From NCBI GenBank assembly GCA_039822165.1, contig JBCBMS010000017.1, positions 59,713 to 123,712 on the forward strand: a stretch of 64,000 bases of DNA, read 5' to 3'. Position numbers and translations under genes: made by a program. Origin of the DNA: Chloroflexota bacterium. GTDB taxonomy: Bacteria; Chloroflexota; Anaerolineae; Aggregatilineales; Phototrophicaceae. Shown in pieces: positions 45,702 to 53,281 of this stretch; the stretch's first letter is position 1; each line of letters opens with the position of its first letter. A model generated the notes under the pieces. The model made no database searches. It was not told the DNA's origin and worked only from the letters and a program-made list of their open reading frames with translations.

Positions 45702-46133
45702 ATGGCAACAACCATCACACGGGAACTCCACGAACGCATGGTGAACCACCTGCGCGGCGTATACCCCAACGAGGGCGGCGGTTTGCTCATTGGCACTGTA
45801 AATGGCGATACGATCACTATCACGGACATTGCCGAAGCCGAAAACACCTTCCCGGACGAAGAACAATTCCACCGCATGGGCCTCGCGCCAGATTTCTGGA
45901 TGAAGGTAGAGGACGACGCCGACGAACGCGGCCTGCAAATCGTCGGGTTTTATCACAGCCACCCGGATGTGGCCGCCAACCCATCCGAGTATGACCTGGC
46001 ACACGCCTTCCCGAACCTCGCGTATATCATCGTGAGTGTGAAACAGGGGGAAGTGGATCACGTAAACAACTGGCGCTTACGTGAAGATCGCTCGCAGTTC
46101 GATAGGGATACGCTGGATGTGGCCGAGGCATAA
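45702..46133 (+). CDS. JAMM/MPN+ (Mov34) family metalloprotease, Mec/HcyD/QbsD-like
   Basis: JAMM motif E...HSHP...S..D (VGFYHSHPDVAANPSEYD). 143 aa. Confidence 0.85.
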   Translation: MATTITRELHERMVNHLRGVYPNEGGGLLIGTVNGDTITITDIAEAENTFPDEEQFHRMGLAPDFWMKVEDDADERGLQIVGFYHSHPDVAANPSEYDLAHAFPNLAYIIVSVKQGEVDHVNNWRLREDRSQFDRDTLDVAEA

Positions 46134-46232
46134 CAATGTTTACATGGGTGCGGACTGCACCTGCCACTGTCGCTGGCGGTCGCTATAATGCCGTACGGCA
46201 GTAAGCCATCAAACAATAAGGAGTGAGAGATT

Positions 46233-47564
46233 ATGACAAACGAAAACGAAAACCATGAAGAAGAACGTCAGTTAGCGTACAACACACTGGCCCTGCACGC
46301 CGGTTACCAGCCAGACCCGAACACCGGTGCCCGTGCCGTCCCGATTTACCAGACCACCAGCTACCAGTTCCGCGACACAGATCACGCCGCTGCCCTGTTC
46401 GCGCTCCAGGAACCGGGCATGATCTACACGCGCATCATGAACCCGACCAACGGCGCATTCGAAGACCGCCTCAACGCGCTCGAAGGCGGCATTGGCGCAC
46501 TGGCCACCTCTGCGGGGCAGTCTGCCGAACTGCTCACATTCCTGATGCTGGCCAACGCAGGCGACGAGATCATTTCCACCTCTGCGCTGTACGGCGGCAG
46601 CTACACCCTGCTCAAGTACACGCTGGCCCGCATGGGCATCACCACGCACTTCGTAGATAGCGGCAACCCGGACGACTACGCCGCGCTCATCAACGAGAAG
46701 ACGAAGCTGATCTACCTGGAAACCATCGGCAATCCGAAGCTGCAAATCCCGAACTTCGAGGCCATCAGCGAAGTCGCGCACGCGCACGGCATCCCGGTGG
46801 TGACCGATAACACCTTCGCACCGTATATCTTTAAGCCGTTTGACTACGGCGTGGACATCACCACCTATTCCACGACCAAGTGGATTGGCGGCCACGGCCT
46901 GAGCATTGGCGGTGCGATTGTAGACAGTGGCAAGTTCGACTGGAAAGCCTCGGGGCGGCATGATGGCATCATTGAGCCTGAACCGGCATACCACGGCGCA
47001 GTGATTCACGACCTGGTTGGTCCGGCAGCGTTCATCATCCGTGCGCGCATCATCGGCCTGCGCGACTTCGGCGCGTCCCAGGCTCCGTTCAACAGCTTCC
47101 TCAACATCATCGGCCTGGAAACGCTGGCCCTGCGTATGCAGCGCCATGTGGATAATGCCCTGGCCGTGGCGAAGTGGCTGGAAGATCACCCGGCAGTGGC
47201 GTGGGTGAACTACCCCGGCCTGGAAAGCCACGCCAGTTACGAGCGTGCGAAGAAGTACATGCCGAAGGGCGCAGGCGCTGTGCTCGGCTTTGGTGTGAAG
47301 GGCGGCCTGGATGCTGGCAAGACCTTCATCGACAGCCTGAACATGGTGAGCCACCTGGCCAACGTGGGCGATGCCCGCACCCTGGCCATTCACCCGGCGT
47401 CCACCACGCACCAGCAGCTCAGTGAAGCCGAGCAGAACGCCAGCGGCGTGACGCCGGACTATGTGCGTATTGCCGTCGGCATCGAGGAAGTAGACGACAT
47501 CATCTACGATCTGGATCAGGCACTCAGCAAGGCCAGCAGCGCCACCTCACAGCCGGTAAGCTAA
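46233..47564 (+). CDS. metY: O-acetylhomoserine aminocarboxypropyltransferase/sulfhydrylase
   Basis: PLP-dependent Cys/Met-metabolism fold with the PLP-Lys motif STTKWIGGHG. 443 aa. Confidence 0.9.
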   Translation: MTNENENHEEERQLAYNTLALHAGYQPDPNTGARAVPIYQTTSYQFRDTDHAAALFALQEPGMIYTRIMNPTNGAFEDRLNALEGGIGALATSAGQSAELLTFLMLANAGDEIISTSALYGGSYTLLKYTLARMGITTHFVDSGNPDDYAALINEKTKLIYLETIGNPKLQIPNFEAISEVAHAHGIPVVTDNTFAPYIFKPFDYGVDITTYSTTKWIGGHGLSIGGAIVDSGKFDWKASGRHDGIIEPEPAYHGAVIHDLVGPAAFIIRARIIGLRDFGASQAPFNSFLNIIGLETLALRMQRHVDNALAVAKWLEDHPAVAWVNYPGLESHASYERAKKYMPKGAGAVLGFGVKGGLDAGKTFIDSLNMVSHLANVGDARTLAIHPASTTHQQLSEAEQNASGVTPDYVRIAVGIEEVDDIIYDLDQALSKASSATSQPVS

Positions 47565-47570
47565 CACCCA

Positions 47571-47599
47571 GCAGGGGCATGGCACGCCATGCCCCATAC
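47571..47599. repeat. REP-like palindrome (core identical to the 40641-40668 copy)
   Basis: GCAGGGGCATGGCACGCCATGCCCCATAC, immediately 3' of metY at the junction with the low-GC cassette. Confidence 0.75.
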
Positions 47600-47641
47600 G
47601 GTACAATGGCCGTGTAGACCACGGCTCACGGAGACAGCAGC

Positions 47642-51478: not shown

Positions 51479-51519
51479 GATAAACGTAAAATAATGTATC
51501 CCATCAGGAGGTAACACAC

Positions 51520-51924
51520 ATGCTGGAACGTCTGGGAATCGCAGTTGCAGTGCTGGCCATGATCTACTTCGGGTATCAGCTTGTGCGATGTTACAGCCTG
51601 TGGCGTGCGGCGAAGCAGGCTCCGGCAGACCCGCTGCTGAAAAACCTGCGCCGGGGCATCCCGGCAGTGCTGTACTTCACCACGCCGACCTGTGCGCCGT
51701 GTAAATATGCGCAGCGTCCGGCACTGCACAAACTGCAAACCCAACTGGGCGACAGCGTGCAGGTGATCCAGATAGATGCGACCGAAGACCCGGACGCCGC
51801 CTCCCGGTGGAATGTGCAAACCGTCCCGACGACGTACATTCTGAACGGCGACGGCAAACCCGAACACGTCAATCATGGCGTGGCAGATATTAACAAGCTG
51901 ATGCAGCAAATCAAAATCGCGTAG
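51520..51924 (+). CDS. membrane-anchored thioredoxin-family protein
   Basis: N-terminal TM helix and a CxxC active site (TCAPCK). AGGAGG SD upstream. Confidence 0.75.
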   Translation: MLERLGIAVAVLAMIYFGYQLVRCYSLWRAAKQAPADPLLKNLRRGIPAVLYFTTPTCAPCKYAQRPALHKLQTQLGDSVQVIQIDATEDPDAASRWNVQTVPTTYILNGDGKPEHVNHGVADINKLMQQIKIA

Positions 51925-51950
51925 AAATTCAGATGACTCCATGACTGCCT

Positions 51951-51979
51951 GTAGGGGCGCAAACACGCTGTGCCCCTAC
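51951..51979. repeat. REP-like palindrome
   Basis: GTAGGGGCGCAAACACGCTGTGCCCCTAC. Confidence 0.7.
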
Positions 51980-52024
51980 CAATATGGAGACAACACCGTA
52001 AACAACAATCAACAGGAAACACAC

Positions 52025-53281
52025 ATGGAACCGTTAGTAAAAGAACGCGCAGAACTCAGCAAAGAGGAAATCGAGCGCTTTAGCCGTCACCTCATCCTGC
52101 CAAGCGTGGGCCGTGAAGGCCAGGAACGCCTGAAGGCATCTTCCGTGCTGATTATCGGCACTGGCGGACTCGGCAGCCCGCTGGCCCTGTATCTGGCCGC
52201 CGCCGGAGTCGGGCGCATCGGCCTGGTGGACTATGACGTGGTGGACGAGAGCAACCTGCAACGCCAGGTGATCCATGGGCAGAGTACCGTGGGCATGTCC
52301 AAGCTGGATAGCGCCGAGAAGCGCCTGAAAGACCTGAACCCGAATGTTCAGATCGACAAGTACAACGTGCCGCTCGTGAGCGACAACGCACTGGAAATCA
52401 TGGAGCCGTACGATGTCATCGTGGACGGTACGGACAACTTTCCGACGCGCTATCTGGTAAACGACGCCAGCGTAAAGCTCGGTAAACCGAACGTCTACGG
52501 CAGCATCTTCCGCTTTGAAGGCCAGGTGAGCGTCTTCTGGGGTGAGCATGGCCCATGCTACCGCTGTATGTTCCCCTCCCCGCCACCGCCGGGGCTGGTT
52601 CCCAACTGTGCCGAGGGTGGTGTACTGGGCATTCTGCCGGGAACCGTGGGCACCATGCAGGCCACCGAAGTGATTAAGCTGATCGTAGGCACTGGCGAAC
52701 CGCTCATCGGCAAGATGCTGCTCTACGATGCGCAGGACATGGACTTCACGAAGATCAACGTGCGCAAAGACCCGAACTGCCCGGTTTGCAGCATCCCGGC
52801 AGAAGAAGTTGAACTTATCGACTACGAGCAGTTCTGTGGTATGCCGGCCCACGATAAGAGCGATTTTAACAGCCTGGAAGAACTGACGGGCGTGCTGAAT
52901 AGCTTCGATACGTCTGACGGTGAGATCACTGTAAAGGAACTGAAGGCCCGCCTGGATGCTGGCGAAGACCTGTACGTGCTGGATGTGCGCAACCCGGTTG
53001 AGTGGGAAATTGCCGCGCTGGATGGCACCGTTCGCATTCCAAAGCCGGACATCGAAAGGGCACGGCTTGCCATTGAGCAGGGCCGCGCCGACCTGGCCGA
53101 TACGGTCATTGCAGAAATCCCGAACGACCGCGAGGTTATCGTCCACTGCCGCAGTGGTGTGCGCAGTGCAGATACCATCGAGATCCTGAAGGCGCTGGGC
53201 TACACCAACAAACTCGTCAACCTCAAGGGGGGCATCCTCGCCTGGGCAGACGAGATCGACAACGCGATGCCGACATACTAG
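52025..53281 (+). CDS. ThiF/MoeB-family E1-like adenylyltransferase fused to C-terminal rhodanese (MoeZ/HcyF-like)
   Basis: Nucleotide-binding GTGGLGS. Zn-binding CYRC...CPVC. C-terminal rhodanese with active-site Cys (HCRSGVRS). Confidence 0.85.
   Translation: MEPLVKERAELSKEEIERFSRHLILPSVGREGQERLKASSVLIIGTGGLGSPLALYLAAAGVGRIGLVDYDVVDESNLQRQVIHGQSTVGMSKLDSAEKRLKDLNPNVQIDKYNVPLVSDNALEIMEPYDVIVDGTDNFPTRYLVNDASVKLGKPNVYGSIFRFEGQVSVFWGEHGPCYRCMFPSPPPPGLVPNCAEGGVLGILPGTVGTMQATEVIKLIVGTGEPLIGKMLLYDAQDMDFTKINVRKDPNCPVCSIPAEEVELIDYEQFCGMPAHDKSDFNSLEELTGVLNSFDTSDGEITVKELKARLDAGEDLYVLDVRNPVEWEIAALDGTVRIPKPDIERARLAIEQGRADLADTVIAEIPNDREVIVHCRSGVRSADTIEILKALGYTNKLVNLKGGILAWADEIDNAMPTY

Follow-up and report, generated by a model that had tools for sequence, protein, structure and literature searches.

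The operon described here occupies positions 45702 to 54178 of a 64 000-nucleotide stretch of Chloroflexota DNA (contig JBCBMS010000017.1; the whole stretch is called the window below). In our judgement it probably encodes a CysO-type protein-thiocarboxylate relay that in this genome is tied to the direct sulfhydrylation of O-acetylhomoserine, with a membrane module, composed of a DUF4395 protein and a tethered thioredoxin (Trx), as part of the relay. Only a few organisms are known to make cysteine or methionine by a protein-thiocarboxylate route. Those to cysteine (CysO) and to homocysteine (HcyS; MetO/MetM) have been established experimentally, and operons combining a ThiS/MoaD-fold protein, a JAB protease and an E1-rhodanese with cysteine synthase were predicted in 2006, Chloroflexus and Salinibacter included, as were operons with O-acetylhomoserine sulfhydrylase (PMC1779556). 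The pathway class is already known, and the present operon is a further member of it, nearest to the mycobacterial type in its carrier, E1 and JAMM protease and with MetX and MetY as the acceptor. What is new is the conserved DUF4395-Trx pair, with its predicted cytoplasmic orientation, its fusions in two directions and its recurrence across phyla. These results suggest that a large environmental clade of Chloroflexota and at least two other lineages possess a dedicated membrane pair for the re-reduction or sulfur supply of the E1, and they give DUF4395 its first functional context.

An earlier note on this DNA, prepared from the sequence, had named seven genes of such a system, and all seven are present with the motifs and positions given there, co-directional on the + strand. 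The features of the region are as follows.

45644–45672, + strand: terminator-like hairpin (13-bp stem plus T-run; pattern match only), just upstream of the JAMM gene
45702–46133, + strand: JAMM/MPN+ metalloprotease, Mec/HcyD-like (Prok-JAB 77.1 bits; motif FYHSHPDVAANPSEYD, of the form HSHP...S..D)
46233–47564, + strand: MetY, O-acetylhomoserine sulfhydrylase, a pyridoxal phosphate (PLP) enzyme (Cys_Met_Meta_PP 424.7 bits; TIGR01326 627.8 bits, cut-off 495)
47642–48697, + strand: AbiLi-like AAA_21/AAA_15 ATPase (PADLOC AbiLi 3e-57; PDC-M38A 4e-53; G+C content at third codon positions, GC3, 0.46)
48682–49377, + strand: DUF3226 protein (DUF3226 69.4 bits; PDC-M38B 2e-8; GC3 0.44)
49382–50581, + strand: MetX, homoserine O-acetyltransferase (NF001209 529 bits, cut-off 331; the succinyl-type exception model scores under its own cut-off)
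50715–50987, + strand: CysO-like ThiS/MoaD-fold carrier, 90 aa (Pfam ThiS 44.5 bits; end IIPSIAGG-R)
50990–51451, + strand: DUF4395 four-helix membrane protein (PF14340 96.5 bits, cut-off 24.5)
51520–51924, + strand: membrane-tethered thioredoxin (Thioredoxin 49.5 bits; one N-terminal transmembrane, TM, helix; basic juxtamembrane stretch; TCAPC; cis-Pro TVPT)
52025–53281, + strand: E1-like adenylyltransferase-rhodanese fusion of MoeZ/Uba4 architecture (ThiF 273.3 bits, Rhodanese 58.4 bits; CYRC, CPVC, HCRSGVRS)
53456–54178, + strand: hyp240, a conserved 240-aa protein of no assigned function, outside the Pfam and NCBIfam families; a possible extra component

The earlier description of a single co-directional block is correct as to direction, but the seven genes are not contiguous, because two further genes lie between metY and metX; and the conserved unit does not end at the E1, as had been thought, but runs one gene further, to hyp240. 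The whole block is bracketed by two hairpins with T-runs, the one listed above and a second on the opposite strand at 54207–54179, and the upstream hairpin is likely to mark the 5' boundary of the unit. In our promoter and terminator scan neither kind of site, hairpin/T-run sites included, was more numerous in the region than expected from shuffled sequence. An Rfam scan of the whole window yielded no S-adenosylmethionine or other riboswitch, nor any other element at gathering score.

Proteins that match the window's DUF4395 exactly occur in metagenome-assembled genomes of Chloroflexota, and the source genome is of the Anaerolineae type. When one genome per species was searched with an alignment of DUF4395, 498 relatives were obtained, from which the best 80 loci were kept. 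These are mostly metagenome-assembled genomes of Anaerolineae, Aggregatilineales and Phototrophicaceae, with a few binned as Bacteroidetes, Pleurocapsa, Spirochaetaceae and Oceanobacillus. The window proteins were mapped onto all open reading frames (ORFs) of the 80 loci, and the denominators 61 and 52 used below are the numbers of loci with enough flanking sequence. Trx adjoins DUF4395 in all 61 loci and the E1-rhodanese is present in 59 of them; the JAMM protease and the carrier are each found in 50 of 52. The invariant core is JAMM, carrier, DUF4395, Trx and E1. MetX and MetY form a frequent but optional insert, since they lie inside the cluster in only 26 of 52 loci while the core is nearly universal. 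As the same order recurs in 80 of 80 related loci, the gene arrangement is far beyond chance. The hyp240 gene lies within the flank in 25 of 61 loci, and eight of its 25 homologs show weak similarity to DUF6544; a single-sequence structure model of the protein (predicted local distance difference test, pLDDT, 35) was unusable.

Several other genes join the core in some relatives. A tandem-rhodanese sulfurtransferase follows the JAMM gene in 25 of the 80 loci, a GNAT gene, sometimes duplicated, separates the carrier from DUF4395 in 20 (e.g. L009:9395-9976), and a sulfite-oxidase-family molybdoenzyme stands between Trx and E1 in six (e.g. L023:10888-11991). None of the three occurs in this window. 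The presence of the sulfite-oxidase-family gene and of tandem rhodaneses in these clusters points to thiosulfate as a sulfur source in some relatives. Neither the window nor any of the 80 Chloroflexota loci has a CysM-like ORF.

Carrier, protease and activating enzyme

The carrier gene most likely begins with the ATG at 50715, behind a GGGAGA Shine-Dalgarno sequence, and its 90-aa product ends in IIPSIAGGR, the Gly-Gly being capped by a single Arg exactly as the earlier note had described. The IIPSIAGG motif and its Gly-Gly are conserved across the 80 loci, a few having IVPT or IIPT instead. In contrast, the tail beyond the Gly-Gly is hypervariable: it is lacking in 10 loci, is R in 13 and C in eight, and elsewhere consists of many one-off sequences of 1 to >10 residues or of a whole fused protein. 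The single Arg is one state of this tail. The H-x-H...S-x-x-D motif of the JAMM protease is intact here and in 59 of 59 homologs. An invariant Gly-Gly, a free-running tail and an intact protease are together what a processed pro-carrier should look like, judging from the sequence pattern. Two tasks are predicted for the JAMM protein, removal of the carrier tail beyond Gly-Gly and hydrolysis of the adduct of carrier and homocysteine. Trimming of a carrier by its JAMM partner has precedents in QbsE/QbsD and HcyS/HcyD. A tail-trimming role of the JAB protein was also predicted in the 2006 survey (PMC1779556).

Among solved structures the nearest relatives of the carrier are 4N6E_B (1e-18) and then M. 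tuberculosis CysO (3DWG_C, 3e-15); after these CysO-type structures comes a Thermus MoaD-related protein, and SAMP and MoaD structures are far weaker. No bacterial MoaD or ThiS model of NCBIfam matched, and the score on moaD_arch, 39.6 bits, lies below the cut-off of 49.5. By these similarities the carrier appears to belong to the CysO clade and neither to MoaD nor to ThiS. The earlier note had held that its reading would fail if the carrier and E1 grouped with MoaD/MoeB or ThiS/ThiF and molybdopterin genes lay nearby; what we found is a CysO-type carrier, and neither the ORFs scanned in the window nor the annotated flanks of the relatives yielded moa, thi or ttuA genes (for molybdopterin, thiamin and tRNA thiolation), so that on this count the reading is not refuted.

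For the E1 the most likely start, at 52025 behind AGGAAA, is also that chosen by the gene caller, giving a protein of 418 aa; the reading frame is open from 51941. CYRC and CPVC are the CxxC pair of its zinc site. Its rhodanese loop (CRSGVRS) is conserved in 65 of 66 full-length homologs. The closest solved structure is Uba4 (6YUB, 222 bits), followed by MoeB and ThiF, and the architecture is identical to that of the NCBIfam MoeZ model PRK07878, on which the protein scores 490 bits (cut-off 647). The best NCBIfam models carry the name MoeB, a label that is probably misleading for the present system; one of them, PRK08762, is passed along only part of its length (452 bits, cut-off 449). MoeZR of M. 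tuberculosis has a thiosulfate sulfurtransferase activity with an unphysiological Km and loads CysO (PMC3227635).

The DUF4395-thioredoxin pair

The DUF4395 protein and the tethered Trx had rightly been flagged as unusual in the earlier note, and the word "embedded", used there, greatly understates how closely they are tied to the system. The ATG of DUF4395 lies 2 nt past the stop codon of the carrier, so that the two genes would be translationally coupled. A profile search of 1.84 billion representatives returned 798 DUF4395 clusters (50% identity) at E values up to 1e-3, and fusions occur on both sides of the protein. In-frame fusion of ThiS to DUF4395 is seen in L034, L042, L056 and P0103, and again in P0121, P0156 and P0196, which are distinct clusters at 50% identity; the eight members of P0156 come from different sources and are all 254 aa long. 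The public annotation of P0121 and P0156 is "molybdopterin converting factor small subunit", a label that is probably misleading. DUF4395-Trx fusions are represented by P0198 and P0248 and are abundant in freshwater Acidimicrobiia. A tblastn search of DUF4395 against 72 556 plasmids gave no match.

The AlphaFold2 model of DUF4395 (pLDDT 92.4) has TM helices at residues 10–30, 32–49, 79–101 and 105–125, outer loops of 1–3 residues, a cytoplasmic helix at 56–67 and a C-terminal helix, 129–139, that starts from the CxGC motif. Both cysteines of the protein belong to this one motif (C128-L-G-C131), at the cytoplasmic end of the fourth TM helix. CxGC is invariant in two alignments and is present in 73 of 98 near-full-length DUF4395 representatives, most of the others being fragments or frameshifted. 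A PHRF motif is invariant within the Chloroflexota alignment. In very divergent members only the F, C-x-G-C and, nearly, an N-terminal Asp and a Tyr are fixed.

Four independent lines of evidence, the fusions and a charge bias among them, lead us to predict that the CxGC motif and the Trx domain lie on the cytoplasmic face of the membrane. The N-terminus of DUF4395 should be cytoplasmic, because ThiS is fused to it and the JAMM protease and E1, which carry no signal, must act in the cytoplasm. With four TM helices, the C-terminus and its CxGC would then be cytoplasmic as well. The linkers of the DUF4395-Trx fusions (P0198, P0248) are polar and basic and contain no TM helix, which would put the Trx domain on the same side. 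In addition, 75 of 78 Trx homologs are richer in Lys and Arg after the TM anchor than before it, a positive-inside bias. A periplasmic Trx of the Dsb/ResA type was considered and rejected on account of this bias, the TM-free fusion linkers and the cytoplasmic, ThiS-fused N-terminus of DUF4395. The membrane-associated step that the earlier note had proposed would by this prediction take place on the cytoplasmic face and not across the membrane.

Outside the Chloroflexota set the same anchored type of Trx partners DUF4395 in all eight lineages sampled. Identities to the window proteins are 33–39% for DUF4395, 27–36% for Trx, 47–62% for the carrier and 54–62% for the E1. In two of these lineages the pair is part of a thiocarboxylate cluster. 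In L093 (G+C content 0.37) the order is CysM-like PALP, JAB, a fusion of ThiS, ThiF and rhodanese, DUF4395, Trx and tandem rhodanese, the carrier being joined to the N-terminus of the E1; in L095 (0.51) it is CysM-like PALP, JAB, ThiS with the exact IIPSIAGG end, DUF4395, Trx and E1-rhodanese. The co-occurrence of DUF4395 and Trx with carrier and E1 genes in other genomes, which the earlier note had wished to see examined, is therefore found in the Chloroflexota loci, L093 and L095. The L093 fusion is a single protein of 486 aa in which IIPSIAGG is internal (L093:4474-5934). A further fusion, of JAB and tandem rhodanese in one 427-aa protein, occurs in L097 (L097:8259-9542), a locus that also has hyp240.

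Elsewhere the surroundings of the pair differ. The DUF4395 gene of Actinopolymorpha alba (L096:3760-5487) overlaps the start of a tandem rhodanese of SseA/CysA type, which is followed by DUF1416, and the anchored Trx is encoded 2 kb upstream; DUF4395 is thereby connected with the thiosulfate sulfurtransferase locus of actinobacteria. The two genes of the pair overlap in Cellulomonas marina, are divergently adjacent in Kitasatospora and the P0498 lineage, and are adjacent in the low-G+C lineage L094. In Acidimicrobiia (L085-L090, gene at about 7001-7810) the fusion gene is preceded by a tRNA-U5-methyltransferase-like gene and followed, with stop and start overlapping or adjacent, by an oxidoreductase of the MDR family (ADH_N/ADH_zinc_N); no sulfur-carrier genes were found near these fusion loci. 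We conclude that DUF4395 and Trx form an autonomous, widespread membrane redox pair that has repeatedly been recruited to sulfur-carrier and sulfurtransferase systems.

Small helical membrane proteins with redox cysteines and a thioredoxin-fold or rhodanese partner are familiar from DsbB-DsbA, VKOR-Trx, MauE-MauD and DoxX-SseA, and the fusion of DUF4395 with Trx has its parallel in that of VKOR with Trx. For the present pair we predict a cytoplasmic position of the redox cysteines and of the Trx domain, whereas in the DsbB- and VKOR-like pairs they are periplasmic, and neither sequence nor fold similarity of DUF4395 to membrane thiol oxidoreductases of the DsbB, VKOR or CcdA type was detected. 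Our search found no functional statement on DUF4395 in print, only two passing mentions. In the literature searched, no membrane or thioredoxin partner is given for the carrier systems, and the word thioredoxin is absent from the 2006 survey (PMC1779556).

The proposed relay and competing explanations

Gene content, motifs, synteny and fusions are observed, and the topology is reasoned from them. The chemical steps are inferred, as are the part of carrier thiocarboxylate (carrier-COSH) as sulfur donor to MetY and the way in which electrons or sulfur pass through DUF4395 and Trx; we picture them as follows. MetX would make O-acetylhomoserine. The carrier would be synthesized as a pro-form ending in GG-R, and the JAMM protease would expose its Gly-Gly end. 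The E1-rhodanese would adenylate the carrier, the rhodanese persulfide would attack the adenylate, and the resulting acyl-disulfide would be resolved to carrier-COSH. MetY would take carrier-COSH as its sulfide equivalent, an S-to-N acyl shift would follow, and the JAMM protease would finally free homocysteine. The MetY and JAMM end steps are modelled on the systems of Wolinella (PMC8191291) and mycobacteria, and the argument for them here is one of synteny.

DUF4395 and the tethered Trx would act in this relay as a two-protein dithiol/disulfide module on the cytoplasmic face. In E1-rhodanese chemistry a second cysteine cleaves the acyl-disulfide, which sets carrier-COSH free and leaves the rhodanese cysteine in a disulfide, so that turnover of Uba4 needs an exogenous reductant; the sulfur donor and the reductant that serve the E1-rhodanese inside the cell are still an open question (PMC11662940). 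The likeliest job of the module would be to provide two electrons per turnover by re-reducing the disulfide on the rhodanese/E1 cysteines; in a related role it might supply the E1 with sulfane sulfur that comes from a thiosulfate sulfurtransferase. Trx is the obvious candidate for the reductant, because it is encoded beside the E1 in 59 of 61 genomes. The membrane partner of Trx would be DUF4395, which has a CxGC of its own and is joined, by fusion or coupling, to carrier and Trx alike. That it recycles Trx with membrane electron carriers is a serious possibility, though one we put short of an even chance; that it relays sulfane sulfur which the tandem rhodanese has drawn from thiosulfate is somewhat less likely; and a scaffold or regulatory role takes up the remainder. 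The module is a concrete candidate for the missing in vivo reductant or sulfur donor of these enzymes, and the natural fusions show which proteins should be combined in experiments.

A wider reading of the pair must be held more tentatively. DUF4395 and Trx may represent an unrecognised class of cytoplasm-facing membrane thiol-disulfide oxidoreductases that links thiocarboxylation and the assimilation of thiosulfate or persulfide to membrane electron carriers such as the quinone pool, but we regard this as rather unlikely. Such a class would be a functional mirror image of DsbB or VKOR with their Trx-fold partners, and the membrane would supply or remove the electrons of each E1-rhodanese turnover. 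In Acidimicrobiia the link might run via the adjacent MDR-type NAD(P)H oxidoreductase.

Among characterised systems the closest model is CysO-CysM-Mec-MoeZ of M. tuberculosis, which shares the CysO-like carrier, the E1 with C-terminal rhodanese, the JAMM hydrolase and a PLP acceptor enzyme, which in the relatives L093 and L095 is itself CysM-like. The present operon differs from it in having MetY and MetX as acceptor, with homocysteine and not cysteine as product, and no CysM; in encoding the E1 inside the cluster; in the cap or fusion after the Gly-Gly of the carrier; and in the added DUF4395 and anchored Trx, which are not described for the mycobacterial system in the literature examined. 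The parts list and general logic of the earlier note (a capped ThiS/MoaD-fold carrier, JAMM, E1-rhodanese, MetX and MetY) remain sound, but the likeness to Wolinella succinogenes that it drew is weak. A carrier with one extra residue past the Gly-Gly, removed by a metalloprotease, was reportedly described from Wolinella by Krishnamoorthy and Begley in 2011. In the HcyS-HcyD-HcyF-MetY system of that organism MetY also draws its sulfur from a carrier thiocarboxylate (PMC8191291). However, Wolinella-type operons have an E1 without rhodanese, a SirA-like protein and genes of sulfate/sulfite assimilation (PMC1779556, type 4e), whereas no SirA/TusA, sulfite reductase, PAPS (phosphoadenylyl sulfate) or APS (adenylyl sulfate) genes occur in the present cluster or its flanks; nor is a membrane module reported for Wolinella.

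Three other systems share part of the scheme. Streptomyces albulus MetO-MetM-Mec-MoeZ (Hasebe 2024, as summarised in GapMind 2026) likewise leads through a carrier, a Mec-type JAMM protease and MoeZ to homocysteine, but it uses O-phosphohomoserine and the threonine-synthase-like MetM where the present operon has MetX, O-acetylhomoserine and MetY; DUF4395 and Trx go unmentioned in that summary. Uba4-Urm1 has the same mechanism of adenylation, persulfide and acyl-disulfide and the same need of a reductant for turnover (PMC11662940), but it serves tRNA thiolation and urmylation, and a dedicated membrane reductant is not known for it. In MoaX, the MoaD-MoaE fusion of M. tuberculosis, a carrier is fused through its Gly-Gly to its direct working partner and has to be cleaved for activity (PMC4326299, PMC3227635). 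MoaX is therefore a precedent for reading ThiS-DUF4395 as a fusion of partners, although it belongs to the molybdopterin pathway and its partner is a soluble enzyme, not a membrane protein.

Several observations weigh against the relay as we propose it. The DUF4395-Trx pair occurs without any carrier genes in Acidimicrobiia, Cellulomonas, Kitasatospora and L094, and its basic function would for this reason be broader than thiocarboxylate formation. The positions of DUF4395 residues, including the clustering of the invariant ones, are predictions from secondary structure and topology. If the module took its electrons from menaquinol, the reduction of a thioredoxin would, by our own reasoning from established redox potentials, be thermodynamically uphill. 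MetY matches the Thermotoga enzyme 7KB0 with 573 bits and the Wolinella enzyme 3RI6 with only 257 bits, so that by similarity ranking (not by a tree) it appears to be of the ordinary, Thermotoga-like, sulfide-using clade and not of the carrier-dependent clade of Wolinella. Half of the related clusters contain no MetY-MetX, and these have no other PLP acceptor within 10 kb, for which reason the carrier module may serve other acceptors. With MetY and MetX in-cluster in just 26 of 52 loci, the earlier statement that MetY uses carrier-COSH has to be taken as an argument from synteny. The carrier narrowly passes the archaeal SAMP1 model (61.2 bits, cut-off 60). Finally, an E1 of MoeZR/MoeZ type serves MoaD as well as CysO, and because mycobacterial MoeZR loads both, the identity of the E1 cannot fix the pathway (PMC3227635).

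Some of these observations would also be expected of a more general unit for mobilising sulfur, used for instance to assimilate thiosulfate or to deal with persulfide and yielding free sulfide, persulfide or a multi-acceptor carrier, with MetY as a co-regulated neighbour that works on free sulfide. The optional MetY-MetX pair with no PLP acceptor nearby in the other clusters, the ordinary clade of MetY, the recurrent tandem-rhodanese and sulfite-oxidase-family neighbours and the carrier-free pairs of other phyla all fit it, as does the fact that rhodaneses can use thioredoxins as sulfur acceptors and thereby free sulfide. We nevertheless think this explanation unlikely: a PLP sulfhydrylase, MetY or CysM-like, lies inside the cluster in three independent lineages, the carrier is CysO-like, and JAMM is kept in 50 of 52 loci, a protease that the characterised systems need also for hydrolysis of the carrier-amino-acid adduct. 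It is quite improbable that the carrier is instead a ubiquitin-like modifier of the SAMP, TtuB or Urm1 type, activated by the E1 for conjugation to lysine and removed by JAMM as deconjugase. TtuB does act as both sulfur carrier and modifier. So does Urm1 (PMC8561144), and besides the SAMP1 match of the carrier the best NCBIfam match of the JAMM protein is desampylase and the E1 matches the SAMP-activating UbaA. The last two scores are under their cut-offs (63 bits against 130, and 344 against 450), the E1 bears a sulfur-transferring rhodanese domain, all recurrent neighbours are sulfur genes (MetY/MetX, CysM, tandem rhodanese, sulfite-oxidase family), and E2-like or target-specifying genes are not present.

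Very improbable, in our estimation, is a MoaD/MoeB pair of molybdopterin synthesis with incidental met neighbours. The MoeB names of the E1 models, the part-length pass on PRK08762, the molybdoenzyme of the sulfite-oxidase family in six related clusters and the service of MoeZR to MoaD (PMC3227635) could be cited in its favour, but neither the loci nor those parts of the window that were scanned yielded MoaE, MoaA, MoaC or MoeA, the carrier resembles those of CysO type while matching none of the bacterial MoaD models, and a Gly-Gly tail that is capped or fused, in company with a conserved JAMM, is a trait of cysteine/methionine and siderophore carriers, not of MoaD (PMC1779556). This has a bearing on annotation, where such carriers now go under the name molybdopterin converting factor small subunit and the E1 under that of MoeB. 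From their occurrence alone in several Actinomycetota and one low-G+C lineage, one might suppose that DUF4395 and Trx have a housekeeping redox function at the membrane, unrelated to the operon in which they sit by chance. This is scarcely credible in view of their presence in 61 of 61 loci, the DUF4395 start 2 nt from the carrier stop, the in-frame ThiS-DUF4395 fusions in at least four distinct sequence clusters and the recurrence of the pair inside the carrier clusters of L093 and L095.

Inserted and neighbouring genes

The earlier description left out the two genes between metY and metX (47642–49377), which are co-directional with the operon, so that its orientation is unbroken. The DUF3226 gene overlaps the ATPase gene and ends 4 nt ahead of metX. 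The GC3 of the two is 0.44–0.46, compared with 0.69–0.79 in the flanking genes, and among the 80 related loci they are shared by the closest relative, L005, alone. Nothing convincing was seen in the way of target-site duplications or terminal repeats around the insertion. This AbiL-like/PDC-M38-like pair appears to be a recent foreign insertion of the defence type, outside the sulfur system, and is a candidate anti-phage pair.

Downstream of the operon a minus-strand GNAT gene (54235–54792) was compared with the cluster GNAT of the 20 relatives and rejected as its counterpart, as phmmer gave no match at E < 1e-3. Just upstream, on the minus strand at 43145–44584 and flanked by small ORFs, is the gene of a 479-aa protein with SPFH/Band-7 and major-vault-protein shoulder domains. 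About 18 kb upstream of the cluster (window positions 26580–27788) a Pyr_redox_2 flavoprotein of 402 aa is encoded, a candidate sulfide:quinone oxidoreductase or type-II NADH dehydrogenase. Other ORFs of the window, at 1294–2042, 12163–12720 and 22580–24336, have a GC3 of 0.43–0.49, compared with about 0.7 in the genes of the genome, and may be foreign islands.

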